Source: Amphiscolops sp. MND2022
Taxonomy: Eukaryota
Length of the DNA stretch: 64,000 nucleotides
Direction of reading: 5' to 3'
Assembly (NCBI GenBank): GCA_964187785.1
Contig: OZ076409.1
Span: 53,136,001-53,200,000 of the forward strand
Every line of letters begins with the position of its first letter. The stretch's first letter is position 1. A model generated the notes under the pieces. That model made no database searches. It had not been told where the DNA came from and worked only from the letters and a program-made list of their open reading frames with translations. Both the position numbers and the translations under genes were made by a program. Positions 32,968-64,000 of the stretch are shown here, piece by piece.

Positions 32968-33136
32968 AATACAGAATACAGAAAGAAATACACAAAGAAA
33001 ATTTGAAAGAAAAAGAGAAAGTTTGAAGCTTAATGTGAAACTGAATGAAAAATATTTCACAAGTGATAATGAAAGACACAAATCCTAATTGATAAAAAAT
33101 TATAACTACTTTACAAATTAAATCAAACTACCATAA

Positions 33137-34606
33137 CACAAAGATTTCAAAATTGATAGACATATTCACTCACCATCATCAACCACAAATAACTCATCTT
33201 CTAGTTCAACACATTCACTCCAAAGACTACCTGAATATACAGCATATTTAAACTCAGATACAGACATACTGGATTCCTCATCCTAAAATCCCAGTCCATC
33301 CGCTCCATATACTCCTGATAGAGTACCAACAACACCCACCAATACACCTATAACCCAAACTCAAACACTAGTAATAACAACTCAATCACAACCTATTTCA
33401 AGAAATCGAACATTTGTAGAAACAAATTCACCACTTTCTGACTCTAATGATGAAACACTTACAACACCAAATACACAAGATACTTCAAAGATTTTACATA
33501 GACCTCCTCTTCCACCAATTACTACCACTCGTTCCGTTCATATCCCTGATCCCAGCTCAGTTCTACAATACATAAATTCTTGTCCATATAAAGTACCAAC
33601 CGCAACGAAAACAAAAAGAAAAACTCCTTTACCTACATTACCACAAGACCTTAATTTACCATCATCAAGTCATACTCCAATAACATTCTTACCAGAACCT
33701 TCATTGAAATCATCAGTGAAGAAATCACAACAACACCCAATTCCTTCACCATCTGAACTAAGTTCATTCACATTTTCTCAAATATATCCCAAACTTTAAT
33801 TAGAACGTGTACATTCAACCACTACCTCTTCTTTAACAGATTTTAATCATAAAGATAAAGATTCTGACTCAACTGCTAGTACTAGAGTACCAAGACATAA
33901 TTATAACCTTCGATCTCAACAACAAAGAAAATTTCTAAAATTACAATCTTTAACTAGTTCAAGTACAAACTCAAGACTACTTAGACAGCACGCCCAACCC
34001 AGAGTAGACACTTCTTCTCTTTCCTCATCTCAACCCACTATACCATCTTCTTTATCACTACCATTTCAAATCACATCAGGATTTGAAACAGCTTCTCTTC
34101 TTTCTGAAGACCCAGTAACTATATCAGATAGCGCAGCTAATTTTTCACGAGTTTACTCACCTAGTTCAATAGCATCAAACTCTTCTATACAATTACCTGA
34201 ATATTTTTTAGAAGATTTCTCAAGACCTCCAACACCAAACCCTCACGAATATCCCATCCGTGTTAATTCAACAATTGTTCGTACGCTTAACGAAGATCCT
34301 CGATACACGGTTTTACCTGCAAGATTTATAAACAATAGTTCACTCTCAACTCAAAGAAAACAAAGAGAATTACGAAGATTACAAGAACAACAACTCGCAT
34401 TAAAATTTGAAGTAGAAGTCACATTCAACTCGTTAGGACCTCATCCATTCTCTCTTTCAACAAGAGTAGCACACAAAACAACCCCATCACCATTCATAGT
34501 CACATCCATTTCTCACCTTTGTGACGCAGAATTACCTGAGATTAGAACAGGACATATAAACTTTTTTAATCCCTACTCCGGACTTAATTATAGAACAATA
34601 TTTTAA
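33137..34606 (+). pseudogene. Element A ORF X: Pro/Ser/Thr-rich accessory frame between pol and env
   Basis: One frame of ~490 codons with only two internal stops (33284, 33797); 33800-34606 is 268 sense codons. Missing from the ORF track because it has no suitable start codon. Confidence 0.7.
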
Positions 34607-34639
34607 CTATAGAACAATATTTTAACTGATGTTTTAACC

Positions 34640-37296
34640 ATGAACCAAATCACCTTTACCCTATACTTAATATACATAATACAAGTTGTTAAATACACGT
34701 ATATAATACATATATTTCACTCTTTAGTTCACCCTTCAACTGTTCCTAAAGTTGACACAACCAATTCCGAAAATCATATTTCAGACCTAGACCCTAACAT
34801 TTTAAACTTGATGGTATCCCATTATGATTGTGCAAAACAAAACAATTTAAGACAATTCAGTTTATTAAATGTCGAACCATGTAAACAAGCACCCTCAGAT
34901 ATACAACACACAAAAACCCAAGCAACAGTTTATGTTAGAGCAAAGGCCAAAAGAATAAAAGCCTTTAAATGCGAAGCATATATAAAGACTGAAAAGGTCT
35001 GGTGTTCACAAACATTCACATCTAGTAGACGATATGATCGTTTACAATGGGGACAAAACACATTAGAACTTCCAAAAATATTGGACCCTATTGAATGCAA
35101 AAACTTGATAGAATATTTAAACGCGACTGATAGCGAAGAACTAAACAATTACAATATACAAAGCTCTTTCTCATTGTTCGACGATAGTAACTATCAAAAC
35201 ACAATTGAACGAATTCAAACACTATTTAGAGTAAAAAAAAATTAAATACATGGCATATTGGAACCTTCGTATTCGATGAAAATTATCCCGACTGGATAGT
35301 TAATGTTACACAAAATACATACTCTAGATGTCGATCAGACCGAGAACATTTAATTACCCGACAAAGTTGGAAACTTAGATTTGTTAACACCGCAATAGAT
35401 TATGACGATGAAAACATTCAATTAATACATGACGGACACATATTACCATGCTATCATTCAGACGGATTTTGTAAACCAACGACAAAAACTCCATATACAA
35501 TAACATGGTTTGATGAAAAATTTTGCCTCTTATTTCAACTTCAAGAATTCATTGGTAGAATGACACGAATCACAGACAGACATTGGATAGAAACCGATAC
35601 CTTCATTGAAACTTCAAACATCACACAAAAACTTCAAACCGAAGGAATACAAGGAACAAGATATCCTAATGTGAAAACACCACAATCAAAAATAAGCAAT
35701 CCAAGCCTTTCTCGATATGAAATATACCCAATTGCACAAACCTTCTGTGGAAAACCTGAACCATTATTCTCAACACAATATGATCACATCTTTGTTACAT
35801 ACTTAGATGGTTTTGATATGAACACAGGACTACCAAAACCACACTCAATAATTGACCAAACAATTAGTGGAAACATAAAATATGATGACTCAAATAAAAG
35901 GAATATTTCCCTGCATTGAATATATCAAACAATTTCACCACTTTAGATTATGATGCCCACATTAATACAAAAATTGATTTCACAACAAATCATGTATTTA
36001 AATCCATGACAGTACAAGAACTAAACACCTTTCATACAATATGTGAACTGGAAAGAACTCAATTGTTAACGATCTTAGCTATGTCAGTTAAAAATCCTCA
36101 ATTAGCCGGTTTTCTTTTAACTGGAAATCGAAGTAACTTTCTCTACGTTGAAGGATCTACAGCATGGCTGTATGATTGCCCTCATTTTATATCACCACTA
36201 TACAAGGCAGATAAATGCTTTGATAGAATTCCCATACACTACAGAGAAACGATAATGTATGTTGATCCTATAACAAGACAAACTTTTAACTATGCAACAC
36301 CAATTGAATGTGGAAATAACCCACAAAATATAATCGAATTAGACCCAGACTCTAACGACGGAGATTTTTATGTGTTAACACCAGAACCACTCAAATGAGA
36401 AGCACCACAAATGTTTAAACCTACCCAAATTAAAACAACAATCACTCCTAATACATTTACCGCCCAAGATGCCGGTATATACTCAAAAATGCAGAATTAG
36501 ATCAATTCTGGAATAGAGTATTAGTCGCTAAACATTCAGACACAACCCTTCAATTACTTGGAAAATCATTAGGCTATGATTTCATCACAGTGCATAATGA
36601 TAAACATTCCTACTCAGGACATAATCCTTATAATCATTTAAGGATTGGAGTACATGACCACTTGTTAAACCTCTTACCACTTTTCAACCCTGACTGGTTC
36701 AGTCAAGCATTCATTAATTTCTTTGGATATTCATGTTATGTTTTAACACAATGTGGAATTTATTTTTCAACATTTCTTTTCATAAGAGAAGTTTTAATAT
36801 TTTTACTCAGTCATAGTTAGTCATAGTTTAGTCATAGTTTAGTCATAGTTAGTCATAGTTAGTCATAGTTTTAACATTTTTACTCAAATTCTACAGAACA
36901 ATTAGCATAAAATACAATCTCCAAAGCAACATTTCCATTTTGAGTTCAATAGCCCATGGATTTTTTAATATAGTTACATCGGAAATGGTAACCGATTTAA
37001 ACAATACAGATAAACGAAAACGGATATATACTAAACACAAAATTACAACAAGTGAAAATGATAATATCGTATTGCCGGAAAAAGAATTAAACAATAAACG
37101 AAGATACTCTGATAATGTCTCCCCTTATTTACCTCCTAAATATTCCAGTAGGAGTTCAACATTTCAATCACCGCAAAAGACACACCCAACTAATGTCAAC
37201 GATATTAATTCTCAGGACTATGACCCAATATTATCAAATGTAATAGCTGTACCGGGAAGTCCTGCTAAAGTCTTTATTAAATTTAAGACCTCCTAG
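34640..37296 (+). pseudogene. env: Element A env: class III (chuvirus G / herpes gB-like) fusion glycoprotein, disrupted
   Basis: Hydrophobic N-terminus; HYDC..FSLLNVEPC; ICELERTQLLTILAMS..P..AG; LYDC..KCFDRIPI..YVDPITR..TPIEC; C-terminal TM-like segment. Lesions near 35240, 35900, 36396, 36485 and a 77-bp insertion at 36809-36885. Confidence 0.85.
36809..36885. repeat. (AGTCATAGTT)x6 insertion with a 19-bp flanking duplication inside env
   Basis: AGTTTTAAYATTTTTACTC occurs at 36790 and 36867; removing 77 bp restores the frame (..IFLL-KFYRTISIKY..). Confidence 0.85.
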
Positions 37297-37737
37297 CTAA
37301 AAAGCAATAACCAAATAAACAAATTAACCTCAGAAAAAGTTCAAAAAATTATCAACAAAATTCTTCTCAGTTTAACTTTCATTCAAACCCAAATTCTCAC
37401 TCGGACCAGTCTCTCCTTTTCAACTCAACTAAAAATTCACTTGCCTATCACAACTCAGCTCTCAACCAGAAGACTTCAAATGGATTTTCAATCCATCTAA
37501 AAGACCGAAATTACAGAAGTTTCTATTCCTGGAATAGATGCCACTGTGATTGTTGATGTTTTCAACCCACCATTCACTCAGTTATTCGCATATTGTAAGT
37601 ACAATTTAAACTTCTATTTTAACAAACAATTTAATGGATAGAAAAGACATAACGAAATTTTTCCTTATTATTAGAAACAGTATAATCAAACGTTATAATC
37701 ATTATTTTAGCTCTACAAAAACACGCAAGTTTAAATA

Positions 37738-43227: not shown

Positions 43228-44016
43228 TTAATAAATTGGGAGAGTACCTGTCGCTGTCTCTTGTCCGACCGAGGTCGTTGTAATTTTCGTGCCGTCACCT
43301 GCGGCAGCCTGCGACACAGCGAGTGCCAGAAAAAGCGAACTACCTGCATTAAGACCGTTTGAATACGCTTCCCGACTGAGGGCTGTGATGTAAGCAGGTT
43401 CGCTCCGGGGTGTAGACCTCTCCATGTACCAGTCTGTTTTTTCTTGCTTTATCTCGTCGACATATTTGACACATACCATGCAGCTGAGGCACCTCTGGTT
43501 GCTAAGGTCCGCAAATGGCCGCACACTCTGTATATGGTAGGAAGCATGAAAGGTATTGTCCGTCGATTGCGGCATTGGGGTGTCCAGTGAAGGCCCCCTT
43601 TCATTTTCGAAGGGTGACATGGGTGACTCCAAAACTGGTAGAATTGTGTTACAGAGCTCGATTTTTGCCTCTTCAATTTTCCGGGAAGGCGCATAGCAGA
43701 GTTTTTCGTCGAAATATTTAAAACCTAACTTGGGGGTAGTTGGCGGAACCGGTCGCGAGCTACTGGGACCTGCTTCCATCTCGTCATCCAGCCCCTCTGT
43801 GGTCATGACGCGTCCAGCAATGAGAATTGGGCTAGAATTGAAATCTTTCTCGATTCTGCTGATCAATGCTTCGGTGTCCGTTGACCAGTCCGAATCGTAG
43901 GAGTCTGTAGCCTCTTCTTCCTCGTCGCTTGAGATGTATATGACAGACTCTGCTGAGTCTTCTGAGCTCTGCTCCTCGAAGTCAAAGAGTTTCCTCAATA
44001 GGTTAAATTTCTGCAT
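43228..44016 (-). CDS. Intact 262-aa element-borne protein with an acidic N-terminus and SIM-like motif
   Basis: Uninterrupted ATG-initiated ORF; VIYISSDEEEE; CLSCMVC; decayed homolog at ~21130-21395 (+). Confidence 0.7.
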   Translation of the reverse strand: MQKFNLLRKLFDFEEQSSEDSAESVIYISSDEEEEATDSYDSDWSTDTEALISRIEKDFNSSPILIAGRVMTTEGLDDEMEAGPSSSRPVPPTTPKLGFKYFDEKLCYAPSRKIEEAKIELCNTILPVLESPMSPFENERGPSLDTPMPQSTDNTFHASYHIQSVRPFADLSNQRCLSCMVCVKYVDEIKQEKTDWYMERSTPRSEPAYITALSREAYSNGLNAGSSLFLALAVSQAAAGDGTKITTTSVGQETATGTLPIY

Positions 44017-45072: not shown

Positions 45073-48000
45073 ATGGACTCTTTCCAAGGAAGCTCACCGC
45101 GAAAATTCATCTCCTTCTGTTTAGAAAATCCAACAGATGAAAGTTACCAGCCACCAGACCCAGCCTTCATTCAAGTTCCTAACAAAACTAGCAGTGTGGA
45201 CCCAGAGTTGCAAAAACAACCTAGCCAGCAAATTTCTTCAAAGGAGTACGGTAGTGATGAAGATGTTAATGCGTATGCCGACAACATCGTACGCTTGAAA
45301 GAGGGATCAACTATTTCAGGAACAGGGCGGAGAGTTGACTCGGAAGAGCAACCCAGGCGAGTCACTGCACCTGTGACTGATGGATTAGATGAAGTAAGCC
45401 GGATCCGGACAAGTACCCCAGTTCCCATTAGCCAGGTGAGAGAGTAACTGCCACAGCGGAAACCAGTTTCCCAGAATTGGTCCCCATTTCAATGCTTCTT
45501 GTTGGGGAACGTTCTGAAACCCACCTCTCTGCCAGTGAGGATAACACATCTTCCATTTATGAAGTTCCAGCGTTGCCTGGACTACCAGCCCAGACAGAAC
45601 CCCCGACAGAAATGAGCTGAGAAGACTGAGGACGAAATCAGTAGATTGGGTTATCAACATACCCAAAATGTCACCTTTGGTGACACAAAGTCAGGGACAG
45701 AAGGAGGAGACGAATCTGGCCCCAGCACCAGGACTATCCGCCAAGCAGAACCAGGACCTTCCGGTCAGACAGTAAACATGCCTGTTCATGAGTTATCAGG
45801 GAGGAGTAGGGCAGTGCTCAAACAACTATTTGTTGAAACTCCTCCTTTCTCGCTGCCAGTTGGGCACTCGACTGTTGCGTTTAGCGAACCGGAGCTTCAT
45901 CACTTACTCAAGACTCTTACTAATGAGACGCTTAGTCAATCATTCACCACTATGGTTTTGGAAGCAGTGAAGGGCGCCCCTGCGACAGCACAATCGCGGA
46001 CCGATCACTTCCGATCCCGGCATCGGGCACAAAATCCGCACCCACACATGGACAGTGATACCAGTGAGGGAGGGATAGAGAGTGACTCGTGTTCTGAACC
46101 CCTTGCTCCAGGATCTTCTAGTACTTTAGCTAGTGGGGACTCGACAACAAGTTACGAAGAATCAGATAGTGCTGCAGAAACGGCTTTAATAGACGAATCA
46201 TGTCAAAGGTCCACTGCAGGAACTGCTGGGAAGCCCCCCATAGTTACAAGCACTCAAGCCAACCCGCTGAAACAGTAACCTCCAGTGAGATGAGCTGTCC
46301 CGAAGAGACACTGTCAGCAACCCGGGAAGCAGCAATTGAAGAGAAGACCAACGTTGTTCCCCAGTCCAAGAAGACTAAGAAAAAACCGAAGACCATACAA
46401 CGAGGAGTCCCGATGAGAGAGGAATTTTTCTCTGAAATCGGATGGACGCGTTCCTTCATTTCTGTTCCTGCTGACCCGCTGCACAATCCTTGCATGGTGT
46501 GGTGCCACATTTGTAAAAAGAATATTTCCATCAAAACTAAAGGCACTTTCGAAATTTTACGGCACCACAGAACAGAGAAGCATCTTAGGCGCGATCAAGG
46601 GTGGAGGTACGAGCACTTGCACAGCATTGACCCCATCAGTGGAAAAGTTCAGCATAGGGAAAGAGGCCGGAATGGAAAAGTGCTGTCATTGATTGAACTG
46701 GTCAAAGAACTGCCAAAGTTTATCCACGCTGAGCTAGTGCACAAAGGGGAGCGTTTTCCCTCCTACGAAGATTTCCCTACAAAAAGTTGTGCCGAGTCTT
46801 CGCGTGCCGCAGTAGTCTCCCGTCCTCTCAATTTACTGGAGAACTTGGATCTCTGTCTCGGTTCCTCTTCGTGGTTTCCACCATAGCTGACATCGTGGCG
46901 TGTTCCCGGTGTTCAGTGGACTTTGTGCGCACCCTAGAAGTGCAGCTATTTCCCCAGAGGGTTTCAAAGTTGTTCCCGCTTTGAACATTTATCGCTGTTC
47001 TCCCTGATGCACAAAGGAAGTTACAGCGTATTCGGAATGATTGACTTCTTTTCGGTGCTGCAAGCCCTTCTAGTCTCCCTGGGTGGGTCTCAAGTAGAGG
47101 ACTGGATCCTAGAATATCCGGAACTCCATCGAGTTAGTGCTGAACTCATTGTAATTCATGGGTCCAAAACAATAAAGTGGCTACTTTAATCATGATATTC
47201 CTTCTTTAGGCGATTACCTCATGCCAGTTGGACCTGAGGGCTTGCCAGCATTGTCCACTGAACTGATCAACCTGTGGAAGAATGTGCGAACTTACTTGAC
47301 CGTCCACTCGCCCGGGGAAGAAGGTCAAGGAGTAAGAAGTAGAGTAAGTTTTTTGTCCGTGTTGTCCTTCTGTTTTTTTGACTCAAAAGTGTTTTTAACC
47401 TGCATAACCCAGTAGTCTTCCGATGAATATGGACAGGATTTTCCTTATTTAACTCGTGCTGTTACAGGTGCAGAGCTTTGAGTGGTCACTTATTAGTGAT
47501 GAGTTTATTACCGTCAAGATTGAGTTCTTTCAACGTCTTGTCAGTGACTGTTAGTATTTTCTTGTAGATTCTGGTTCACTTTTGCCTGTTTCGGACGTTT
47601 TCCTTTGTGTTTGCAGATTTATCCAGTTTCGTAATTAACCTTCAACAACGGCGCGATGCGTCTTTCTATCTGTTTGGTGAAGTTAGCCAGTCTGTCTATT
47701 GTCTTTGTTGCCCTGCTTCACTCCAGACACTGTGCCTTTGGAGAACTCTTGGTTCCTCCTCGTGGAGTTCAAGACAGCAGAGGGTAAGTTCAAGGAAGTA
47801 AACGATTTTCTAATTCGGCCAAAGCTTGTTTCAAAAGTTGCTGCGGCCAGCAAAATCAAAGCCGAGGGACTTTTAGTTGGCAAAAAACCTGACAAGGCAA
47901 CGGTCCAGAAGACCATCACTGAGGTAAGAAACGACTTTGTCCAAGAGGCACTCCGTTTTATCAAGTACCTGCTAGATGGGGTCCTACATCAATCAGAATC

Positions 48001-48786
48001 GAACTCTCACCTGGTCCAGGTTTTGGCAGCTTTCAATTCTCACATCTTATTCAGACGACCAGTTAACGTTGCCTTGCGACATTTTGAGTTACTGTACAAT
48101 ACTTTTCTTTTGCGGAAATGGGTCACGAGCGCTGATGAGTCTTCCTATCGCGAAGAGTACCTTGGCCTACTTGATCATCTGCAGATTACTTATCCGGCTG
48201 ACTTCAATTCCACTGATCTGTCTGCTGACCTAATCGAGTTCCTCATGGGGGTTGACTTTCTTGGCACTAAGCCACGACTTCTCCACCTCTTTAAATTGTG
48301 TTGCCTATGATTTACAGCCCGTAGTGAAGAATTTCGCTCTGTTACTTTTGGTTATATTGACCTTATAGGTCCCCAGGGAAGATTTGCCAACTCCCCCCCC
48401 CCGACGTCGTGTTGCCGGGACGAAGTTATTTGTCTGGAATTCTCGATTCAATCCTGTTCTGCAGTCAGGATTCAAATCTGTCAAAGTTCTCTCTGCTCGC
48501 ATCTAATTTTGGGAGGTCAGCATTTGCCCCTACATATGATCCTTGGGATTATGTGGATACGTTTGGACGTTCCAAAATCTATAAAGCTTTATTGTCATCC
48601 TATATGGTAGCGGTTGCAGGCCCTCATAGAAACGTCGTTAGTTTGGACCCTAGGGAAATTTCTCCAGTCCTGGAACAGTCTGCCTTGCAAATTCCGAGTA
48701 GCACAAAGAGAAGGCGAATGGGCAGTACAAAGTCTCGGTCATCCAGTTCATCTGTCGTCAGTGTTCCTACCGCCCTTAACTTCTAA
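45073..48786 (+). pseudogene. Antisense BED-finger / hAT-transposase-derived gene inside element B (probably spliced, disrupted)
   Basis: Disordered S/T/E-rich N-terminus; GWT..VWCHICKKNISIKTKGTFEILRHHRTEKH (C-x2-C-x16-H-x5-H); helical C-terminal region RNDFVQEALRFIKYLL..LVQVLAAFN..PRLLHLFKLCCL; splice-like sites (TTCTTTAG 47209, GTAAGT 47344, TTTGCAG 47617). Confidence 0.7.
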
Positions 48787-49074
48787 GGACTAACGTGTAC
48801 ATATGTATTTATGTACACTAGACAGTATACTCTGTTTTATTCTGTGTTGTATTTATCCATAGTTGCCAATTTTGTTGCTATTTGTATTAATTGATGGTGA
48901 TTTGTTTCTGTTTCGTTGCTATACCCCTGCATATATTCTGTCCGTAGGGGTTTTTCGACCGTTCTTTTATTTGTTCAATGAAAATACTGTCTGCCATGGG
49001 ACTAGAAATGGAAAAAAAGATAGAAGAAAAGAAAGGCAAAATAACGCTCGTTTCTGGGCGAAATTCATTTCTGT

Positions 49075-52000
49075 CCAGTATCTAAAGTCTTCTGAGTAGT
49101 TTGGAGTAGGATTAGGCCTGAGATTATCTTTCCCTCCTCTGGGGTTCAGACTTTCATTTCTATCATCATTTTGCGAGATTTCTGGCACGATAATATCAAC
49201 CCCCCTGTTTGGAGAGTTTTATGCATCGTTTTCATCATTAGAATATCTTTCCTGAAAATTTGCATCATTTTCCTGTCTTTTGGACAGATCCCGGGAACGA
49301 TTTTTTTTAATTTTTGTGGTGAACGGCTGAATCCGGCCAATCAGAGTTTTCATTTCTAGCAGCTTCACTACCTTCATTTCTATTGCTGACGTCACTTTTC
49401 AATCTTAAGTTCTGATTTTGCGCTGCGTCGTTGACGTCATTCGGACTGTCAGTCGTGATTATGTAATCCGCTTCTTTCTCGTGTGCGTCACTTGCATTCA
49501 TTTCTGCCGTAACCGGCTGTTCGCCATTCGGCAAGCTTTCTGAATAGGCTCGTTGCCTCGTGTAGTTAGCTGGTCACCGAAGTTTGTCTCCCACGCTATT
49601 GTATATAAGTCGTCCTGCGGAATGATAATTTCCTCGTCTCGCTGTAAGTGCTCTTCTCGAGAATCGTTTTCAAACAGTTGATTGGGAACGAACTTTTTAA
49701 GGCGGATTCGATGTAAAAACTGAGTTTTATTTGTATTGAGCCTGCGGACGGTGTAATTTTCCTGAGGTAAAACTTTTTGGACTTAAAATGGTCCAACCCA
49801 ACGATCATCTCTGAATGGAATCTTTGATCCTTGGTGATTCGCTTTTGGCTGCAAAACAAAACAGTAATCATTTTCCTTGAGTCGTGACGCTTTTGCTTTG
49901 CGGTCAGAATATTCCTTGTATTTAACGTAGGATTGCATGATATTCCTTTTTGTTTCGTCAATCAAGAGTTTTGTGCGATTCTGAATTTCTTCCGCAAATT
50001 CAGTTGTGGCGATGATCTGCTCGTTTGGATTATTTTCAAGTTTGTGATCCAAGATATCGTATGGAACTCGTCCATGGAATACTCTTGTTGGTTCACAACC
50101 GATACTTGCATGGTAACTGGTGTTGTGATTGAGAAATGCTAATGGCAAGTATTTATGCTATCGTCGGCGATATTCCCCTTATGCCATTTTTAGGTTCGTC
50201 TTCAATGAAGCATGCGTTCGCTCTATTTTCCCGATTGTTTGCGGGTGTTTAGTTGTTGCACATTTGAGTGTAAATCCGGAAATTTGCGTACTTTCTGCAA
50301 TAATCGTGGAAATGAATGCAGTTCTTTTGTCGGTAAAAAGTGTTGTTGGTAATTACGCATGTTTTGTCAGTTTATCAAGAAGCACTTTTGCTACATTGAT
50401 TGCTGAAGCGTCCGTAAGAGGATAAGCAAACAGATATCGAAAAAAGACATCAATTGCAGTTAGAACATTTTCATATACTCCACTTGGGGGAAGATTCGGC
50501 AATTAGTCGATTTGCATAGCGTCTTCGGGTCCAAGGTCCCATTCTGTCAAGTTAAGTAGTTCAGGTGTGAAAGTTGCTTTAGGGACTCGTTTGTTTCTTG
50601 CGCATTGCTCACACCCTTCTACCCACTCCACTTTTTTATTATTCTTTGCCATGCTAGGGTGATAATACCTTTGTCTGATCTCCTGTAACATTTTTGATAT
50701 GCCAGGGTGCTTTTGTGGTGTCCCATGAAGCGACTGGAGCAATTCTTGGAGCAAGTGCTGCGGGAGTAGAATTTGATGGCATTTTACATTCCCTGTTTTG
50801 TCGAAGTATTGCCTGGTCAGGATCTTTTCCTTGACTACAATCCGTTCTAAATTATTTGCATAGTGTCTGCATCGAGCGTTCTGTTGCAGTACATTTCTGA
50901 ATGTTCTTCATGAAAGAGTTTTGCTTTCAATTGCTGTAATACTGCATCTTTGGATTGCTCAATAATTATCTGATTCGTTTTCCGTAGTCGGACTTGGATA
51001 TCAGGTTGTTGTTCGATCAAATTTGTTAACAATGTTTGTATTGTCACAGCAGGTTCTTCCATAGCGGGATTTTTCCTGATTGCTTCTTTCAACGCCCAGT
51101 ATTGTTCTTCCGTCTCATCCTGCTGATTGGACATTGATTTCAATTGGTAAGGTTTGTACAACCTCGCGGATTTTCATGACTAATTTGTCCTTGGGATCAG
51201 ATTCCAATCGGGATAGGTAAATCGCTGCTGTATTTTGTGCTCCAGGGATATGCGCTATGACAAAATTGAATTGAATGACATAGTCAGAAGCGTTCCACAG
51301 GGCTTGGGGTACAATTTTTGTTTAGAAACATTGGGTGACGGCATTGTTGTCTGTTAGGAGAATGACCGGGTTCGGCGCACCCCAGAAAACATGCCCAAAT
51401 TCTTTAAATGCAAAATAAATTGCAAGAAAGTCTTTTGGATAAAAGGACATCTTCATCTGGGTGGTGGTGGAGGTTTTGGAACCCTAGGCGACCAGTGCAT
51501 AGGATTTGCGGAATGAAGTGAATTTCTGACTTGGGTCATCTTCGATTAGCACTGCATATCCAGCAGCACCAAAACTTGCGTCTGTCATCAATGCGATTTG
51601 TTTATTCGGAATCGTTGTTTTAGGGTCAAGTCGCAACAATTGTCTAGTGCTCGGTTGATTTCCTCAAACTGCCGAACCAATTCGTTTGATACTAGAACTT
51701 TTTTGTCACTTTTCAGCATCTTATAGAATGGGGAAAGGCGTTGTTGGAAAGGAAAGACAATCTTGGGACGTAGTTTCTGTAGTAATTTGAAAATCCCAAA
51801 TAACGTTGCAAAGCCTTTTTTGATTTCGGAAATTTGGTTTTTTCAAGAAAGTTTTGAACATTCTATCTTTGGGGTTTGACGCCTTGTGGGATAATCGTTC
51901 GTCCAAGAAAATCAATCTCTAGCACCAAAATGGCATTTGTGCATTGTCAATTAAAGGCCTGCTTCCTGAATGCATTTGAATGTTGCTCTCAGGTTAGCGA

Positions 52001-53527
52001 TGAGACGATCAGCGTCGTTGGATGCGATGCCGATATCGTCCACAAACTGGGCACACTGATCTGCTTTAATTACTTTATCAAGGTATTCTCGCAGAAAGCT
52101 CGAGAATGCGGATAGCGCCCGGCTAAGGCTTTGTACCAATCGTCTGTAGGCAAATGTGCGGCTCCCAAAATTGAAGGCTAACATTTCACTTGATCGCTGG
52201 TCCGCCATCTGGAGGCAATGGTACGACTGTGAACAGTGTAATTTGCAAAAGAGTTTTTGCCCACCATGTATTGGGCGGCATCAACTAGGGTACTGACGGG
52301 GTGATTATTGTTTATACGATCGTCCGAAATTAGATTGTTGATTTTTCTCAAGTCAACCAGGAGTCGCAGTTTCCCATTTGGCTTGTTTTGCGCAAATATC
52401 GGGCTGGCGTTTTTGGAAAAAGGCAATGATTATTTCATATTTATGTAGCATTGCTAGTTCAACTAGGATGTCTTCCTTTAAGTTTATTGGCGCTGGGAGG
52501 CTCTGGCTATAGGCTGGGGAATCGTCCTTGGGCGTCAGTTTTACCTTAATTTCCTCGTTCATGTCTACGTCAAATCGGTGTCTCGCAAAAATGTCGTGAA
52601 ATTCCACTAGTAATTCTTCGATTTTCTGTTTTTCATCAAGAGTAAGGGTGGAATCCTTCCAATTGAAGTTTTCTACGAATTTTGTTCTGGATTCCTCATC
52701 TTTTGTAGGATCAAGGGTCTCCAGGTCCTGTAAGGCCTGCAATTCTCGTATGATTCTTTTTTGTATCGGCGTATGTTCGTCTGGGTTTCCTGGGTTTTCC
52801 GGGGATGGAAACCAATAATTTTCCGAGTTTTGGGGCTTTTGTTGGTCTTGATGAGGCTACTGAGATAATGGGCTGCCTGCACTTGGTCGTTTTGTAAGAG
52901 GTGCCAGGTCGATACCGGATCAACCGGTTTGACGTATTTCATTTGTTCTGGCGTCATAACAGTGAAGCTAGCAATATGGAGTCCTTTTTTGAGTTTATAG
53001 GGATGATCCGTGAACTTATTCACAGGTATCGATATATTGCCATCGTTCAGAGTGACCAAGGCTGGGCAAAAGGTAATGTCACCTTCTTCGTGTAGAAGGT
53101 CAGTTGGTTGAAGTATGCCAGTGACCGCATTTTTGAGATAAAGTAGGGAGCTTGTCCTAATTAGGACTCTGTCGTTCGGTGGAATGGTTATTTCAGTAGG
53201 ATTGAGTATTGGCTTCAAGACATTGGAGTATTGGTGATCAGCTCTTTTGAGCAGCGTTGAAAAGAACGGATAGTTCAAGATCCCCCTGTTTCATGTCCAG
53301 AACTGTATGGTTTTCCTGAAGGAATATTAACCCTATGATTGGTCCCGTCAAATGCTCCATTACTATGAATATTTCGTGAAACTCGATGTCACCAACCGCA
53401 AATTTAAGCTCGATTGTACTTTTAGGAGTCTCTAATTGTCCATTTGCAAAAATGATTTGAAAATTCGGAGGCGGACCTTCCCGGGTAACATATTGTGGAG
53501 AAAGAATTCGAATTTTCTGGAGGTCGA
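49075..53527 (-). pseudogene. pol: Element B pol (heavily disrupted)
   Basis: LRLLVDLRKIN, RRLVQSL, QFVDDIGIA (RT); TDASF (RNase H); HG..KHPG..CEQC (IN zinc domain); WVGPF; C-terminal NLRPNPTPNYSEDFRY. Confidence 0.92.
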
Positions 53528-55865
53528 TGTCACGACCCGCTCCCGGTCGTAATTTTACTTGCTGCTTTGGAATACCGGGATTCGGCAGAGGACATGGACA
53601 AGGACAGAGTAAATATTGTTAAACTAATCAAATCAAAATTCTACTTACAGTACAGTTAAATAAACGCGAATAATTTTCCAAATACGGAATTCGACGTAAA
53701 TGATACGGAAGATTTTCAGAAATGAATTTAAACTAGCTAAAATTGCCGGTCTAATGTTTTCACACGCAACACCGTTTTATTTCCGGTTTTATCTTCTGAG
53801 TTTTCCATTCCAATCTAAACACTAAATAATTTTGCAAACGGGATCATTTTGGCGTTCCACACTAAAATGAAAACATAGAAACGACATTTAACTCCGAGAT
53901 CCCAACGGAGTCCATAAAATCTAAAATGTCATAACATACAAAATAGAGTGGAAATGTATTCCAATATTAAAGTAGTTGTTAAATATCCACTTAAAACCGC
54001 AGTCAAGCGATTTTAAGTAAATGTATACAATGTTATGACAGCGTCACTCAACTAGGCTAGTGACGGGCGTTTCTATTTTTACGGACCATTAGCGTCGCTT
54101 GCTGGCAGAATTATCCGAGCCGGTACCAGTAGAATTAAGCTTGGTTGCCCCTAGCAACGCTTACTAGCTAAGAAAGAGAATGAAATCGCGTACGCTCTCC
54201 GTTTTCACTCCGCTTGCTACTGCTGCTAAGCTATAAGCAACCTTAATACGTACGGAGCACTTACGGAGCGGATTGTAAAATTGTAGTCCGCTGTCCAGCT
54301 ATAGATAATCTTAATACGTAGCGTCTACGGAGCGAATTGTAAAACCGCAAATGAGAAATACTGCTCCATACGAAATCCGAACCAAGCCTTTTAAATTAAT
54401 GCATTTGGAAGATCTAAGAGTTATGATTCTTATATAAGGGAAACTGTACTGCAAGGAAGGATGATAAGAATTGTAATGGTATTTCTGTGTTCTGAGTTTG
54501 TATCATCATGATAAGTCACTAAATCGCGTTGACACTATGCTTTGCTTAGTGCTTCCTTAATGGAACAAATCTACTTGATTTACTATGGCACTTAAAATAT
54601 CTTAATATTAATCCTAATGTAAAACGTAAGGTCAACGCGAATTCCTTGTTTTCAAGTCAGTAATAACAGTTGTATTTTATGATTACAACAATCAGGCTAA
54701 TGACCGAACTTTGATTATGTTTTGATGAATTTCATGGTGATTGTGTGAAATGTTGAAGTTGCTTTACAATTATTATTATTACGAATATGTTGCGCTCATC
54801 TTTGTTGTATTCCGTTAAAGTCCCGTTTGGACTTAATTTGTGTTCAGTATAAATAATGTAGTATGCCATTAGCAGGTAATTCATGTGTTTGAATTTGGGA
54901 TTATCGTTTCAGCATCGTTTGTTCCTTTATACCAAATTTCCATATTTTCCTTCAGCTTCTAAGTTGACTCATTCCGTCTCGATTTCGTCGCCATTTTTGA
55001 GCGTCATTCTTTTGCTTCGAACTTCAATCTTCCCAACTTGATTGCTGACTAATTGATCACGCCGGCGTGCCTACGCTAATGAAAATGTCAGCTAGACTTC
55101 TATTTTGCCGCAATTTGAAGCACAAACACGAAATGAACCGCCTGAACAAAAATGACTTGAACAAAATTTTACGGAACGCTGACGCAACTAGGAATTTTGA
55201 TGCCTGATTTTGTGACGCGGGACTGAAATAATATGAATCATTAGCGCTTTTTGTTGAACAAACTCGATTTTTGTGATACCTAGGAATTTTTAGGTGAGGA
55301 ACAAATGATGCTGGGAAGGTATAAATATGTAATACATACATGTAAATCAGTTAGTTTTAACCTGCTATGTAACAATCAGTTCTGTTCCGTCATCATAACG
55401 TTTTCAAAAGAAAACCTGAATCTTTGAGGAATTCAACTTTTCCAAAGATATTCTCTATCTCTCTTTCTCTCTATCAAAATGACAGCTAGAAGCCAGAACA
55501 GGAAAGCTGTAGCAGAATTGGTCTCTGGTGATTTCGAAACCTCTGTAACCGAAAACTTACCGCCTGAAACCCTTGTAGCTAGTTCTAGTAAGATTCCTAG
55601 GATAGAACCAGAAAGTTTGACTGAAATAAAAACGTCATTAAGAAAGGAGATTATGTCTGACTTGACCAAAATACTCGCGGAAAATCAAAAGGAAATGCTT
55701 AAACTGATAGCGCCCTGAAACAAAAAACAAAAAACAAACATGTCCTCATCAATGCTCAAGACTCTGACTCTGAAACAGAGAACGTTTCCGTAGCAAGGAC
55801 GTCCACCCCAGTTAAAACACAAACTGCGACTAGTTCTAAAACAACTCCGGTAAATAGTCGTAACA
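53528..55865 (+). repeat. Element C 5' LTR (~2.34 kb)
   Basis: Inverted termini TGTCACGAC ... GTCGTAACA, followed directly by TGG; TATA-like boxes at ~54431, ~54849 and ~55320. Confidence 0.8.
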
Positions 55866-56896
55866 TGGTGACAGGAGTCCTCAATGACTCTACCAACCAA
55901 CCCACGAAAAGATTGAAACAACAACGCGCATCCAACGAACAAACAAAAGACCGTCCTTCCACATCTAAAATACTGTTCGCGCCACCACCGCAAACATTTC
56001 CAGCTACCAATCTACTTCCGATGCCGAAAGCACTCACTGCCTCGCTTCCAGTCTTTGATGGTAAGTCCGAAAAGTTTGAACTTTTTGAGGACCTATTCCG
56101 GAATAATATCAAAATGTACCCTCACCTAACCGAGATACAAAAGATCAACTACTTCCATTCACTCCTACGAGGAAACGCGCTACAAGCGTATTGTAATCTA
56201 GACGACACTAAAAAAGACAACCTAGAAGAAGTCATAACGGCATTCAAACGCCGCTTTGGCGATTTCCAATCATCTGCTAAGGCGAGATGCGAATGGGATG
56301 CGCTGCATTTTGACCCCACTAAACAGAAACTCCATGAGTTCCTTGACGCCCTACAAAAAACTGCAAAAGAAGCATTCGGCTCAGAAGCACAAAGATTCAT
56401 CGACAAAGCAATCTACGCCAAAATGCCGGATCACGTCAAGAAGATCCTCAATAGAGCGTATTTAGAAGATAAGCCCTACAATGACATAGTTTTGCATCTT
56501 GAGAGGGAAATGAGATTAAACTGACTCGGTGCGCCCGACGAAACAACCCTAGTACCACTTAACACAGTGGACGCCGTAGCAACGGACGATAAAAAAGACC
56601 AACAACAACGAGGTCATTGCTTTCACTGTGGCAAATATGGCCACTATAAAGCACAGTGTCGCAGACTCCAACGAGAACGTTACAATGTCGCCAAAACAAC
56701 CACAAAAGACCCAGCTCAAAACGAAGCCCCCAAGCCCAAGTGTGATACATGTGGTAAGATGCACAAAACTGAAAACTGTTGGAACGGAGCCAATGCGGCA
56801 AATGACCCCAGAAGGAAGAAGCGGGAATTCACCATTCCAACCAACAAAATCAGCGAACAACCTGTGCCCACACTGTCCTCCCAGCCAAAAAACTGA
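55479..56896 (+). pseudogene. gag: Element C gag (starts inside the LTR; disrupted)
   Basis: LPVFDGKSEKFELFE capsid motif; knuckles CFHCGKYGHYKAQC and CDTCGKMHKTENC; lesion at ~55716 and stop at 56522. Confidence 0.88.
55866..55878 (+). promoter_or_regulatory. Element C primer-binding site, probably tRNA-Leu
   Basis: TGGTGACAGGAGT is complementary to ACUCCUGUCACCA, which resembles eukaryotic tRNA-Leu 3' ends. Confidence 0.7.
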
Positions 56897-56963
56897 AATC
56901 GCCGCGCCTACGATTTGGGGAAAAAGTAGACGCGAGGGCGCACACGATAGAGGACCCCCCAAA
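56887..56963 (+). promoter_or_regulatory. -1 ribosomal frameshift signal with H-type pseudoknot
   Basis: A AAA AAC at 56887-56893 directly before the gag TGA; pol is open in the -1 frame; stem CGCG.CTAC/GTAG.CGCG; loop TTTGGGG complementary to CCCCAAA (56957-56963). Confidence 0.8.
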
Positions 56964-59900
56964 CAGGTATGAAGAAGATTTTTTAACCGAATGTAATGAG
57001 GAACCAACTCAAGACTGGCAACGCCGTTGGAACGTAGGCATGATTCTCAGACATAACGCCAGACACCCAGACGGTCCAACACCACTACCCCAGTGGATAA
57101 CGGAGTCACCCGATAACTATGCGACACTCAAAAGACCGTTGCCGGAATCAAAAACAGACAGAATTTATATATACGACAGAGACTACAGATGTGACCCTTG
57201 GGATGAACCAACCATCTACGATACAAATAAACTATCCTTCAAAATCCAAGTATCCAACCCTCAAGCCCAATCCACGGGGATCACAAACCTACCATCACCG
57301 CCGTCACCGATCTTGAAAAGCACAACACCATCCCCAACAGTACCCGTCACCATCACGTCCACACCAATAGACGCAGAAAACATAATCTGCATTGAAGATA
57401 AAACAATATGGGCACATCAAGAAAGACGAAAACGAGAAAACGTTGATCCTCCAGTAACCCCTCCAAAAACTGCGCCAGTCACAGCACTGATGGACGACGA
57501 CGTAGAAATCTCGGAATGTCCCTCAAAACTGCCTGAAGACCTAGATGCCATCAAAGAATTCATCCAACACGACAAAGATGACGACTACATTCCGTTAATG
57601 TCCTCCATCGCCCTCAAGAAGAAAAAACGAATGCTTTTTCTACCAGTCGAATTCAACACAATCAAAATTGAGGCGCTAGTCGACTCAGGTGCGTACATTA
57701 ACGCTATTAGTGAAAGGGACGCTGAAAAACTCCGACAGCACGCTAGTCAGTGCATTGTCAATAAGGCACCCCCACCCCCTTTCAAAGTGCAGTATGCCAA
57801 TGCTGAAATAGAACAACCACTTGCCACGTACACCCTACGTTTCAAAATAGGGGATTACACCTTTGAAGAAACATTCATCATCATGAATCAAACGTCATTC
57901 CGCATAATTGGATTAGCGTTCCTACGTAAACACGCCGCAATTCTTGACACGGCACAAGGAACCATCGACTTCCCTAAAATACAAATCACGATGGCGCTCA
58001 CAGATGAAAGACAAAAGTGCAATCCCAAACCCATCACGATGAAGACCGAAGCCAAGTATACAATTCCAGCGCACTCTACCCGAATAATCTATGCAACAAT
58101 CCCTGCGAGTATCGAACACTCAATAACGGGCACTATACAACCCCTACCACAATTCGATGAATGCGCGAAGGTAATAGTAGCCCCAGCTATTACAACAGCC
58201 AGAGACAAAAAATACCAATTAAAATTGCCAACACCACGGATTTCCCATACACAATAGCCACCAACACCAAAATGGCCGAACTGCAAATCCTGAAACCCGA
58301 AGAAACGAAGATGATCCGCCCAGTTGACATAGCCGCCCTGAATCTCCTAACTGACCATGATGACGTGGTCACGTACATCAATGCACTGATGCAAGTAGAG
58401 CGGCCCGACGATAATGAAAAGAAATTCTGGTTCCGACCCCAGAACACCCAGGCAACGAACAGGAACATTCGCCCATACAAAAGCGAATCTTGAAAGAACT
58501 GCGAGACCTCGCCGAGTTAGAAAAACTTGACCCAACCGAGAACGAAGTGTCTCGAAAACAAATTTCTATCCATGTTCAAATGGACAGATTCACTGATTGC
58601 GAACAAAGACCGTGAAAACCTCGAGAACACCATTGTCGAATTCAACGACATCTTCGCTCGACACCGGCTAGACATCGGGATGAACACACAATTCAAAGTC
58701 AGCCTAACACCACAAGACGACAAACCAGTCTACACACAAAGCCTACCAGTCCCCATCAACCTCAAAGAAGATCTAACTGTGGAACTGGCTCTCATGCACC
58801 GATACGGTATCATTACGACACTCCCCTTCTCCAAGTACGCCAGCCCTATTTTTGCACAACGGAAACCCAACAGCAAGCTGAGACTGCTGGTGGATCTGCG
58901 CAAAAACAACGCACTCATAGCAGATGACTACATCAACAACAACCACCCTGTCAGCACCCTCTCAGATGCGGCACAACACCTAGCAGGGAAAAAACTGTTC
59001 TGCAAGCTTGAATGCTCCCAGGCGTACCACTGCCTTCAAATGGCAGATCAAAGGTCAGTAGAGTTACTTGCTTTTAATTTTGCTAGTAGGACGTTCGCCT
59101 ATCGTCGCCTGGCACAAGGACTAAGCAGAGCTCTATCAGCTTTTTCGAGCTTTATGCGTGAGTATCTGGACTCAGTCATCAAAGCAGACCAATGTGCATA
59201 ATATGTAGATGACATCGGCATTGCCGCAAACACAACGGAACAACTCATAAAGAACATCAGAGCAGTCTTCAAATGCATTAGAAAAGCAGGACTAAAACTA
59301 ACCATCGAAAAATGTCATTTTGGAGTAACCCAAATCGAATTCCTTGGCCGAACCATCACCGCAGACGGAGTGGCCCCGCAAGATCAAAAAGTCAAAAATT
59401 TCCTCTCCAAAGTCCGCTTCCCCAAATCCAAAAAACAAGTTCAAAAAAACATTGGCTTTGTTAACTACTACCGCAACTACATACCGCGCTTGTCAGAAAA
59501 ACTCATCGGCATGTACGAACTTCTCAAAGCAGACTCCAAGATCAGAATTTCAGAAGAACTTGTCGATAACTTTAAGGAAATTAACGCCAGTTTAGCGGAA
59601 GCTTGTGGACTTGCACTCCGACAGCCCATAGCAGGAAAACAGTACGTTTTAATGACGGATGCAAGCTTTCGTGCATCAGGCTACGCCCTCATGATTGAGG
59701 AGAACGACGAACGCAAAATACTCTCCAAACGGAAAAATTGCGCACCAGTAGCGTTCGGATCACGAGTTTTTTCACCTGCGCAACTGAAAATGTCCATCTA
59801 CTGCAAGGAATTCTTAGCAATCTACCATGCCTTCCTCGAATACAGCCACATACTATGGGAAACAACAATTCCAATACTGGTCTTAACGGACAACCGCTCA

Positions 59901-62900
59901 GTAACTAGATTCTTCCAGACGAAAACAACACCCCCTGCACTCTGGAACGCCTGTGACTATGTATTACAATTCAAGTTCCGAATTATGCACGTAGCAGGCT
60001 CCCAAAACACGGCAGCAGATTTTCTCTCAAGACTTGAACTTACACCGAAGGAAAAGGTCCAACTTAAACTACGAGATGACATCCTAACGTCCCCAATTGA
60101 GGTTAATCTACAATCATCAGATGTAGCCGACGATCCAACACCACTACCCCAGTGGATAACGGAGTCACCCGATAACTATGCGACACTCAAAAGACCGTTG
60201 CCGGAATCAAAAACAGACAGAATTTATATATACGACAGAGACTACAGATGTGACCCTTGGGATGAACCAACCATCTACGATACAAATAAACTATCCTTCA
60301 AAATCCAAGTATCCAACCCTCAAGCCCAATCCACGGGGATCACAAACCTACCATCACCGCCGTCACCGATCTTGAAAAGCACAACACCATCCCCAACAGT
60401 ACCCGTCACCATCACGTCCACACCAATAGACGCAGAAAACATAATCTGCATTGAAGATAAAACAATATGGGCACATCAAGAAAGACGAAAACGAGAAAAC
60501 GTTGATCCTCCAGTAACCCCTCCAAAAACTGCGCCAGTCACAGCACTGATGGACGACGACGTAGAAATCTCGGAATGTCCCTCAAAACTGCCTGAAGACC
60601 TAGATGCCATCAAAGAATTCATCCAACACGACAAAGATGACGACTACATTCCGTTAATGTCCTCCATCGCCCTCAAGAAGAAAAAACGAATGCTTTTTCT
60701 ACCAGTCGAATTCAACACAATCAAAATTGAGGCCCATAGCAGGAAAACAGTACGTTTTAATGACGGATGCAAGCTTTCGTGCATCAGGCTACGCCCTCAT
60801 GATTGAGGAGAACGACGAACGCAAAATACTCTCCAAACGGAAAAATTGCGCACAAGTAGCGTTCGGATCACGAGTTTTTTCACCTGCGCAACTGAAAATG
60901 TCCATCTACTGCAAGGAATTCTTAGCAATCTACCATGCCTTCCTCGAATACAGCCACATACTATGGGAAACAACAATTCCAATACTGGTCTTAACGGACA
61001 ACCGCTCAGTAACTAGATTCTTCCAGACGAAAACAACACCCCCTGCACTCTGGAACGCCTGTGACTATGTATTACAATTCAAGTTCCGAATTATGCACGT
61101 AGCAGGCTCCCAAAACACGGCAGCAGATTTTCTCTCAAGACTTGAACTTACACCGAAGGAAAAGGTCCAACTTAAACTACGAGATGACATCCTAACGTCC
61201 CCAATTGAGGTTAATCTACAATCATCAGATGTAGCCGACGAAGAACAACTTTTCTTCCTACCAGACGAAGAAGATGAATCTGATCAAGAAATTTTTGCCC
61301 GAAAAGCACTCAGCAAGCGACGTGCCCTAGACGAACATGAAAGAGAACTATCAACAAAAGTAACCGAAGTCATCAAGATACCACTCAACTCCGCAGTCTA
61401 CTCTTTCGGTGCAATTAAGGAAAATGCACGGATCAGAAACGAACAAGATGCAGATCCCCTCCTCAAAGCACTGAAACAACGGATCTCACACGAAGAATAT
61501 GACAAGCACCTTCTCAAAATTGAACCGCGAGGACGAAACCTATTACGCCACGAAGAAAGAATCATAATAATAAGATGGAGTTCTGATGCGAAACTACTAC
61601 GGAGAAGACGGATCAGTTACCCACAACCAAATTATAATTCCAAAACACTTAGTTCCAGAACTCTTGTCCACTCTGCATGGCAAAACAAATAAACACCCAG
61701 GAATCACCAAAATGATACAAGAATGCAGAGCGAAATACTACTTCCCGGGTCTCGCACGCAAAATCAGAGCTTGGGTAACCAGTTGTCAGGATTGCATTAC
61801 CAATGAAAGAATCGACACGAAAAAAATACGTCCCAAAATGCTAAGCAACACTGAATTCACAATGGGACCAGAAGACTGTCTAGAAGTAGACATCCTACCA
61901 AATCTACCTTCCTCAAATGGATACTAACACATCATAACAATGATGGATGTTTTTTCACGTTACCTTTTCGCTTACCCGACTCAGGATATGACAGCAAAAA
62001 CAGTCGCACGATGCATAATAGGTGTCATGACACGACACTGCTACCTACCGACCGTCATTCTAACGGATAAAGGATCACAATTCAGGTCAGAAGTAGTCAA
62101 CCAAATAGCACAAACACTGGATATACGGATAAGCCACGCATCGACGAAACACGCTCAAACGATTGGCATCCTAGAAAGGACGCATGCCTCTTTGAAGACC
62201 TCCCTAAAGATATCAACGGGAGAACGACGCTCTATGTGGCACAAATACGTCCAGATTGCAGTCATGAATTACAATACAAACTACCATGAAAGCCAAGGTT
62301 GTGAACCTACAACAGTGTTTCACGGACGCATCCCGTACAACATTTTGGACATCAAACTTGCATTGAAACCTAATTGGGAAAAAGATAGCAACGAAGAACT
62401 AACGGACCAACTACAGAAACAAATAGCCAAAATACACCAAGCTGCCAAAGAGAACCTAACGCAGTCTTACCTCAAATACAAACAGTACTATGACAAGAAA
62501 GCAACGGCTACACCGCTCAAAGTCAACGACTACCGCTACGTTCTTAATCCGAAGGCAGATAATCAGTCAATGAAATTCGCCTTTAAAGATTGCATTTGGA
62601 CAGGACCCTACATAGTAGTCAAAGTACTCTCGAACAACAACTACGTCGTACGTCGCACGGGAACTAGGTATACTCAAACCCTCCATAGAATTCGCCTAAG
62701 GCTATATGCGCCCAATCAGCGAGTACCTGACGTAACAGTCAGAAGGGAAGATTACCTTCAAGACTCAGAGGTTAAAACAACCCACAATGATTGGTACGCG
62801 CAAGCTTGGGAAACCGAATTCGGAGAAGTTCTGTTCGGAAATACCACAAAAAGAAGCACGAAGAAGCTACAGTTACAGAAATCACAGACACAAAAGGAAA

Positions 62901-63291
62901 CGCCGATAGCACAACGGAAAATGAAGTGGTTAAAACAACCACAAGCGAAGTCACAATGGAAAATGAGGTGGTTAAAACAACCACAGGCGAAACTACAATG
63001 GACAATGAAGTGGCTCAAACAACCACAAATGAAAACACTGAAGGAGATAGAACACCCTCCGACAATGTTACATCATTTGACCTAGATGTCAGCGATAACC
63101 CATATATTTTGACCCCACCACCGATACAAAGCCCTCCCAAAACACCCGAATTGCCGCCTATCGTCGTTGGATATAATCCTAGAAAAGTGGGAAGATACAA
63201 TTTGAGACCTAATCCGAGACCCAACGTGAATCCTGACTTCAGAATGCTAGACTCAGCTACTACGGAAAATCTGAGTCAAACTCAGAACTAA
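56893..63291 (+). pseudogene. pol: Element C pol (disrupted, with a 1108-bp internal duplication)
   Basis: ALVDSGA (PR); RRLAQGL, YVDD (RT); TDASF, ADFLSR (RH); HG..HPG..CQDC, DVFSR, TDKGSQF, GILE (IN); WTGPY; RYNLRPNPRPN. Confidence 0.95.
60134..61241 (+). repeat. Compound duplication: copy of 57075-57674 followed by a copy of 59624-60133
   Basis: 60134-60733 repeats 57075-57674; 60732-61241 repeats 59624-60133 with at least one substitution (APV vs AQV). Confidence 0.92.
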
Positions 63292-63437: not shown

Positions 63438-64000
63438 TTACTTGATATGATGATATACGAGAGGATCAGTATCTTTCTTCGACTTCTTCTTCGGAGTCGT
63501 CTTACTGCCACCAGCTTGAACATTAGATTTTTTCGTTTTCCCGACTTGCTTCACATCAGTGCTCTTTCCACCAACTTTACTTCCACCACTTTTCCCTTTT
63601 CCACTAGTAGAACTGGAACTACTCTGCACAACGGAACTGCTACGAGACCCCTGCTCTGCACGAGACAAACGATTGACCCGATTACACTCAGTATAATGCT
63701 CATCACTGGACTGCCGTCGCTTTGCCAAAAATTCCTTATACAGCTCGCAAAAAGCTGCAATAAATGAGTCCACGCCAGAATCACACAGATCTTTCCACAC
63801 ATAAAAATCAGAGCCAATATAGAAGAGCCCAGCATCGGAAACAGCATATCGAATTAAGCCCATCGTCGATTCAGTAAACAATGACTGCGGAGAATAACCG
63901 TCACTCAAAACATAGGATTGGACAACCCTACAGCACAAAAGCACACTCCCTTCAGCCTGCTTACAGCCAGCCAGATCAAGAGTAAATGGAGGACTAACAC
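63438..64000 (-). CDS. C-terminal part of an antisense ORF in element C (begins beyond the window)
   Basis: At least 168 open codons converging on the pol stop; VQSYVLS..FYVWKDL..S/K-rich tail; positional and weak sequence equivalent of 48409-48786. Confidence 0.6.
   Translation of the reverse strand, partial: VSPPFTLDLAGCKQAEGSVLLCCRVVQSYVLSDGYSPQSLFTESTMGLIRYAVSDAGLFYIGSDFYVWKDLCDSGVDSFIAAFCELYKEFLAKRRQSSDEHYTECNRVNRLSRAEQGSRSSSVVQSSSSSTSGKGKSGGSKVGGKSTDVKQVGKTKKSNVQAGGSKTTPKKKSKKDTDPLVYHHIK

Follow-up and report, generated by a model that had tools for sequence, protein, structure and literature searches.

A likely spliced antisense gene with a predicted hAT transposase fold in Ty3/Gypsy retrotransposons of Amphiscolops sp.

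Two diverged retrotransposons, one inserted into the other, lie in a 64,000-nucleotide stretch of the genome of Amphiscolops sp. MND2022 (the window; assembly of 1.07 Gb), and each carries a reading frame on the strand opposite to pol, which raises the question of what this frame is, whether it belongs to the lineage and what it does for the element that carries it. The original prediction, made from the sequence of the window, had placed the pol stop of the inner element (element C) at 63291 on the plus strand and the stop of an opposite-strand frame at 63438, and had described the same convergence in the outer element (element B); both were confirmed, the decayed frame of B stopping at 48786 and the family-register stop lying at 48793. 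The gap between the converging stops is about 145 nt in C and about 285 nt in B. Positions past the window end are given on an extension, L016, where window position equals L016 position plus 63000.

53528 to L016 7967, plus strand: element C, a Ty3/Gypsy LTR retrotransposon inserted into the part of element B's pol that encodes the protease
53528 to 55865, plus: 5' LTR of element C, TG...CA, about 2.34 kb
55866 to 55883, plus: primer-binding-site-like stretch (TGG...), read from sequence, directly 3' of the 5' LTR
55479 to 56896, plus: gag of element C, broken copy, with its start inside the LTR; PF03732 at E 8e-4, below the family cut-off
56806 to 63291, plus: pol of element C, with protease, RT, RNase H and integrase (Pfam PF09668, PF00078, PF17917, PF00665); broken and internally duplicated
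63438 to 64000, minus: 3' part of modelled antisense exon 6, a frame entering from the window end with 186 aa inside the window; end of the predicted hAT-like helical region and Ser/Lys-rich tail
L016 1730-438, minus: antisense exon 6, the same frame continued beyond the window, 430 codons
L016 2455-1835, minus: antisense exon 5, predicted RNase H-like core; premature stop in the window copy
L016 3165-2592, minus: antisense exon 4, BED-type finger; frameshifted in the window copy
L016 4283-4157, 4044-3580 and 3410-3273, minus: antisense exons 1-3, acidic low-complexity region
L016 4901-5743, plus: ORF-X of element C, placed back-to-back to the antisense gene; its 3' end falls within the 3' LTR
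L016 5649-7967 (past the window), plus: 3' LTR of element C, followed by GTCGA
49076 to 53495, minus: 3' portion of element B's pol, decayed, interrupted at 53528 by element C
45073 to 48793, plus: antisense gene of element B, decayed; exons 45073-46781, 46782-47132, 47210-47343, 47468-47549 and 47617-48793, mapped from the family copy L046
43228 to 44019, minus: ORF-X of element B, with a hydrophobic-acidic motif at 43944 that we take to be SIM-like

The LTRs of element C are 98.1% identical (2273 of 2317 aligned bases), a PBS-like stretch and a PPT are both present alongside these paired TG...CA repeats, and the target-site duplication GTCGA stands on both sides of the element (5' copy at 53523-53527). 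By Pfam, element C has gag followed by a pol with the domain order protease-RT-RNase H-integrase, and relatives have pol as a single frame of 1775 aa.

Exon structure and homology of the antisense gene

The frame that stops at 63438 is likely the last exon of a spliced, six-exon antisense gene of about 1,070 codons located between pol and the 3' LTR. Reference copies yielded stop-free GT-AG models: the gene has six exons (1070 codons) in family C, seven (1065 codons) in C2 and five (1269 codons) in B. Of the sites mapped in further copies, 186 of 189 retain the splice dinucleotides in 19 copies of C, all 36 in three of C2 and 76 of 81 in eleven of B, and every exon is unbroken in 3/19, 2/3 and 1/11 of these copies, respectively. 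Three introns have position and phase in common among B, C2 and L085. The whole core of the relatives P0168 and L076-L084 lies in one frame of 820-925 aa that is collinear with the exons, which backs the exon model, from which we infer splicing. In the window copy of B, a deletion removes the first exon junction and the finger lies at about 46503-46583; B's pol has its end motif on the minus strand, around 49076-49146. We rejected the possibility that the frame is a by-product of codon bias in pol, as the antisense gene does not overlap with pol.

Introns of an antisense gene outlast reverse transcription, given that genomic RNA shows them backwards, which is the logic of antisense-intron reporters. 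The introns of the present gene would quite likely survive in this way, being invisible to the spliceosome in genomic RNA, with the gene read from an internal promoter in the spacer that it shares with ORF-X. The lineage would then be a naturally occurring example of introns passing through reverse transcription, and it includes the precise loss of one intron, an event with a definable place on the tree: families C and C75 are exactly without one phase-1 intron (L029 ~8046; L049 5643-5775) that is kept in C2, L085 and B, a loss that suggests recombination with spliced cDNA. The core in the L076-L084 clade is one frame of 838-918 aa and introns are confined to the N-terminal region. Rooting of the pol tree with element A, a distant element also in the window, returned support of 42/35, with alternatives at p-AU 0.50 and 0.64, and because this rooting failed, no direction, gain or loss, was assigned to the three core introns for the intron-poor clade. 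Against the overall reading, the introns of family C diverge only marginally more than its exons (about 0.87 vs 0.90).

The homology of the B and C genes is visible with intact copies and profiles, not with the decayed copies of the window. The last frames of B and C in the window gave a BLASTP E of 58 when compared directly, profile A1 matched B's last frame at a probability of 0.3%, and a tblastn search of B's decayed copy in the window with three copies of C gave no antisense match at E<0.01. Intact copies of B and C share 25-32% identity in the finger exon (E to ~1e-14) and 20-24% in the last (E to 3e-8). The finger that had been sought past position 64000 on the minus strand was found there, with a CxxC...H...H pattern homologous to that of B (E ~1e-14). 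Profile-profile alignment of the two families bore out their relationship in the finger (probability 97%) and the last exon (95-98%), the middle exon being weak (29%), with reversed and cross-exon controls at 8% or less; the window frame of B at 47687-48307 also shows the homology (probability 93%, E 2.6e-7). The S-Y...W C-terminus that had been read as common to both proteins has the same spacing (W 40 residues past S) and falls in register in the whole-exon profile alignment, although alone it does not rise above chance. The pol genes of B and C are 84-86% identical in core RT, 66-67% in RNase H and about 53% in integrase. The antisense frame thus has the same place and orientation in both elements and is homologous between them, as had been proposed, but it is not a simple ORF, appearing instead to belong to a multi-exon gene of predicted hAT derivation.

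Prevalence, constraint and cassette exchange

At 20 of 20 loci of distant antisense relatives, pol converges on the gene in the same place and orientation, and 18 of 20 elements selected by RT (drawn from the 150 best RT matches, excluding those already seen with a C-type exon) carry it, counts that support the proposal of an ancestral module of this lineage. The two RT-selected elements without a cassette in the fetched stretch, L152 and L156, are either deletion derivatives or interrupted copies; L152 keeps ORF-X and the palindrome described below. Full-length protein matches were free of stops in 66 of 70 cases, in a sample biased to intact copies. A homologue profile collected 910 representatives at E<=0.001, three of which reach no more than 36-53% identity with their top matches from this genome, suggesting that homologues also occur in other species, and the homologues came nearly all from ENA assemblies; a JGI metagenome scan with P0168 confirmed 0 of 61 candidates. 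These distributions bear on whether the gene might be an independent hAT transposon nested in the elements, or an active transposase carried along by a small number of copies. The finger and the hAT-like fold predicted for the protein and the abundance of hATs in the genome (150 PF05699 matches) would suit such an origin, but we regard it as hardly credible, given that pol flanks every relative examined (20/20), that the deep branches of the antisense tree follow pol (agreement across 26 elements) and that the catalytic triad is not conserved. The flanks of the cassette in the loci read are pol on one side and ORF-X/LTR on the other.

The gene had further been proposed to evolve much faster than RT, and over the same 26 elements it does so about sixfold (tree length 10.5 vs 1.66 substitutions/site), although part of this speed is cassette exchange and part is protein divergence, as the conflict of the trees and the occurrence of different cassette types on near-identical pol indicate. 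In L091, L092 and L094 compared to C, dS in pol is 0.16-0.42 and the antisense exons are saturated, with dN of 0.31-0.49; L053 displays the reverse pattern of pol versus antisense divergence. Many copies have a pol 91-94% identical to that of C and LTRs at about 90% while the cassette drops to 63-69% (local matches), and each cassette type recurs in several copies. The conflict of the trees is reciprocal, with each gene rejecting the other's clade (p-AU 4e-104 and 3e-5; 12 of 26 elements). Ten types of last exon, mostly 53-60% alike, were distinguished (last exon present at 42 of 44 loci), and seven of them have members with an integrase end 91% or more identical to that of C, one at 100%. As judged from these alignments, at least seven antisense cassette types sit on near-identical pol backbones. 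We hold with great confidence that the cassettes would have been exchanged. The probable route is a switch of template when two genomes are packaged together, with crossovers that would fall close to intron 1 and towards the end of pol; the breakpoint of one cassette was mapped immediately downstream of intron 1.

Between C subfamilies, dN/dS is 0.04-0.14 in exons 4-6, 0.40-0.50 in exon 2 and 0.02-0.09 in pol; by these ratios, exons 4-6 are under strong purifying selection within the lineage.

Conservation of intron 1 (L029 5559-5680) reaches 85-93% among families of the C clade, which elsewhere are 65-70% alike. The palindrome GACGCGTC occurs at L029 5641-5648, L016 4067-4074 and L080 1584-1591, within intron 1 where checked (L029 and L080). 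It was found in the C clade, in four of six loci of the L085 group (L085-L089, L095) and in eight of nine intron-poor loci, and was absent from 20 pol loci and from the introns of B; it is a candidate for a binding site or a recombination signal. An Rfam scan of L029 4800-6600 returned one sub-threshold snoRNA match, which was taken as chance. The conservation of the intron and the constant position of the palindrome would be expected if the function resided in antisense RNA or in cis sequences and the protein were incidental, and functions of antisense RNA are discussed in PMC7264820. We nonetheless consider this very improbable in light of a dN/dS of about 0.1 between families whose synonymous sites are saturated, a frame kept over all junctions and a predicted product that folds well.

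Predicted fold and catalytic residues

The antisense protein is predicted to have a hAT transposase fold resembling that of Hermes. A model of the relative L080 (783 aa, from the 59-row alignment A3; pLDDT 85.5, pTM 0.74) contains the finger, an RNase H-like sheet and a large helical insertion. Hermes took all ten of the top Foldseek places for this model (best E 1.6e-5), the first other protein following at 0.053, and VIA aligned its residues 202-703 to Hermes 133-609 (Z 12.5, rmsd 5.3, 402 aligned; next 7.2). A model of C's last exon alone (pLDDT 64) also placed Hermes first, weakly, at Z 6.3, with no Foldseek match at E<=0.001, and hAT-clan clusters were among the leads of the Atlas neighbours, all below 0.9. 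The modelled likeness to Hermes (PDB 8edg, 4d1q, 2bw3, 8sjd) extends to the BED-type finger, the RNase H-like core split by a helical insertion, a conserved W and the C-terminal helices. Unlike hAT transposases, the antisense protein has about 10% identity to them, no Pfam hAT match and no conserved triad, and it adds an acidic N-terminal region and the Ser/Lys tail.

The case for a hAT origin rests on predicted structure, since no link to hATs emerged at the level of sequence. Pfam scans of the antisense exons and their relatives gave no significant family, including hAT PF05699, PF14291 and PF04937 (the PF14291 model matched nowhere in the genome, nor in controls), no Transposase_28 (PF04195), and no match to the zf-BED model despite the CxxC...H...H pattern across families. 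PDB sequence searches with A1 and A3 came back blank, A3 compared with seven hAT frames of the same genome gave HMM E >= 0.09 and hhalign probabilities below 1%, and a search with A1 brought up no longer homologues in the range 848-2420 aa, an absence of little evidential weight. By the predicted fold, an ancestral element very probably would have captured a hAT gene in reverse.

Catalysis by Hermes needs D180, D248 and E572, according to the accessible part of PMC2533014. With the corresponding columns set by strand ends and by motif register against the hATs of this genome, not by residue-level superposition, D was found in 0 of 21 rows at the first inferred position and in 1 of 22 at the second, and E in 0 of 33 at the third; counting against a loss, the first column holds E in 10 of 21 rows. 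The finger histidines are invariant (21/21 rows) and the tryptophan is kept in 23 of 24, with some short fragments of A3 misaligned in the finger's cysteine columns. The D-D-E triad thus appears to have been lost, and we hold with considerable confidence that catalysis would have been given up while the finger and scaffold were retained. The gene would work like a domesticated hAT protein and would fail as an active hAT transposase.

Possible roles and known systems

ORF-X is a second conserved accessory ORF, of about 240-290 aa and on the sense strand. Its SIM-like motif recurs in B, C, C2 and the L085-L093 families and was not found in nine intron-poor loci, and ORF-X had no credible Pfam match. 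The spacer of 0.3-1.1 kb shared by ORF-X and the antisense gene contains a CRE-like motif in seven of eight families and a CCAAT motif in seven of eight, counts that carry no chance control. Clustered 9-mer repeats of the type-specific kind that VANC targets were found in none of seven elements, in a scan that degenerate or single sites would escape.

Overall, we judge it probable that this Gypsy-borne antisense gene, likely spliced and likely triad-less with a hAT fold, encodes a sequence-specific DNA-binding regulator that keeps copies of its own element expressed. The accessible part of bioRxiv 10.64898/2026.08.24.746577 describes transposases as sequence-specific activators of cognate copies, and their co-option as commonly keeping the finger scaffold and losing D-D-E. 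By analogy, the antisense protein may bind the DNA of the element and activate or de-silence it, a step whose chances we put slightly short of even and which we prefer to the two other roles considered.

One of these shares the same origin and takes the cassette types as specificity alleles in a conflict with other elements or with the host, as decoys for a silencing factor or in the exclusion of competitors, under frequency-dependent selection. The presence of at least seven types, mostly 53-60% alike and most of them multi-copy, on integrase ends 91-100% identical favors such alleles, as does the SIM-like motif of ORF-X in most families; positive selection was not seen and dN/dS within types is low, and we consider the conflict unlikely. 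The other, which we find somewhat less likely still, is an accessory of integration or nuclear import that would use an end-binding scaffold to hold the cDNA ends or to tether the pre-integration complex to chromatin. It would account for the retention of the entire scaffold beyond the finger and for a Lys-rich tail resembling a nuclear localisation signal, and it has been proposed for plant antisense ORFs (PMC7264820), but cassettes that swap while LTR (~90%) and integrase stay constant fit poorly with a tight LTR-end/integrase interface. Beyond the preferred reading of a DNA-binding self-regulator, it is conceivable, if doubtful, that a pool of at least seven deeply diverged dead-hAT alleles circulates among near-identical elements by recombination at the conserved intron, each giving a different DNA-binding or host-evasion specificity, and that together with a SIM-bearing ORF-X read from a shared bidirectional promoter they form a two-gene anti-silencing system.

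On sequence features, the gene is a member of the aORF-3R class, the antisense additional ORFs that Gypsy elements of plants and fungi, such as maize Grande (gene23), rice RIRE2, Silene Retand, PvRetro13 and fungal Boty, carry in the interval from pol to the 3' LTR (PMC7264820). It resembles them in position, orientation, presence in most copies, conservation of the protein and probable DNA binding. Grande gene23 has its own internal promoter and a nuclear product (PMC7264820), and the CRE/CCAAT motifs of the spacer are promoter-like in the same sense, here as sequence motifs only. It differs from the class in a host genome that, by its size and content, looks animal, in its predicted full BED and hAT fold, in its four to six introns with shared positions and in the many types swapped on one backbone. 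Retand TRP28 carries the Transposase_28 domain PF04195, which had no match here, and introns go unmentioned for TRP28 in the accessible part of PMC11963269. Domesticated proteins of the ZBED/FAM200/ZNF862 type, which were among the Atlas leads, are hAT kin kept by a host, whereas the present gene is kept by a retrotransposon.

VANC of VANDAL is a transposon-encoded regulator (PMC5735166, accessible part), and TnpA of Spm derives from a transposase (bioRxiv 10.64898/2026.08.24.746577, accessible part). Both are likened to the antisense protein as accessory, fast-diversifying, element-encoded and DNA-binding (a property we infer here), with catalytic loss on co-option; unlike it, they belong to plant DNA transposons and have tandem target repeats, which were not found here, the present system being known from sequence. 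The accessible main text of the same preprint makes no mention of retrotransposons or LTR. In bdelloid rotifers, LTR retrotransposons carry extra ORF3s of env, DEDDy, GDSL, coiled-coil and transmembrane types, and thus offer an animal parallel of LTR elements that captured genes in addition to gag and pol, but the accessible part of that report mentions no transposase, intron or opposite-strand gene (PMC5408684). We found no published antisense LTR-element gene that combines hAT derivation, introns and exchangeability, including in the accessible part of PMC13547354, in a search that left most subscription papers and Repbase reports outside.

The origin of most such extra ORFs was stated as unknown in a 2020 review, and where the antisense extra genes of LTR retrotransposons come from and what they do is still being asked (PMC7264820); in the present lineage the origin would be readable, as a DNA-transposon enzyme kept with its introns. 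Dozens of young copies and the natural cassette types on one backbone make a ready comparison for what accessory proteins bind, and the system is suited to asking whether animal retrotransposons encode anti-silencing factors.

Some further features of the elements were observed. Element A (24968-37300, plus strand) is distant, decayed and Gypsy-like, and its long frames past integrase look env-like by eye; two of these were scanned, with no Pfam match. The pol of the window copy of C contains repeated translations, at 57070-57670 versus about 60130-60730 and at about 59620-60130 versus 60720-61240, internal duplications that are either the product of a template switch or a feature of the assembly. 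Finally, gag starts inside the LTR (window 55479; L016 7588), and solo LTRs would therefore carry the N-terminal frame of gag.
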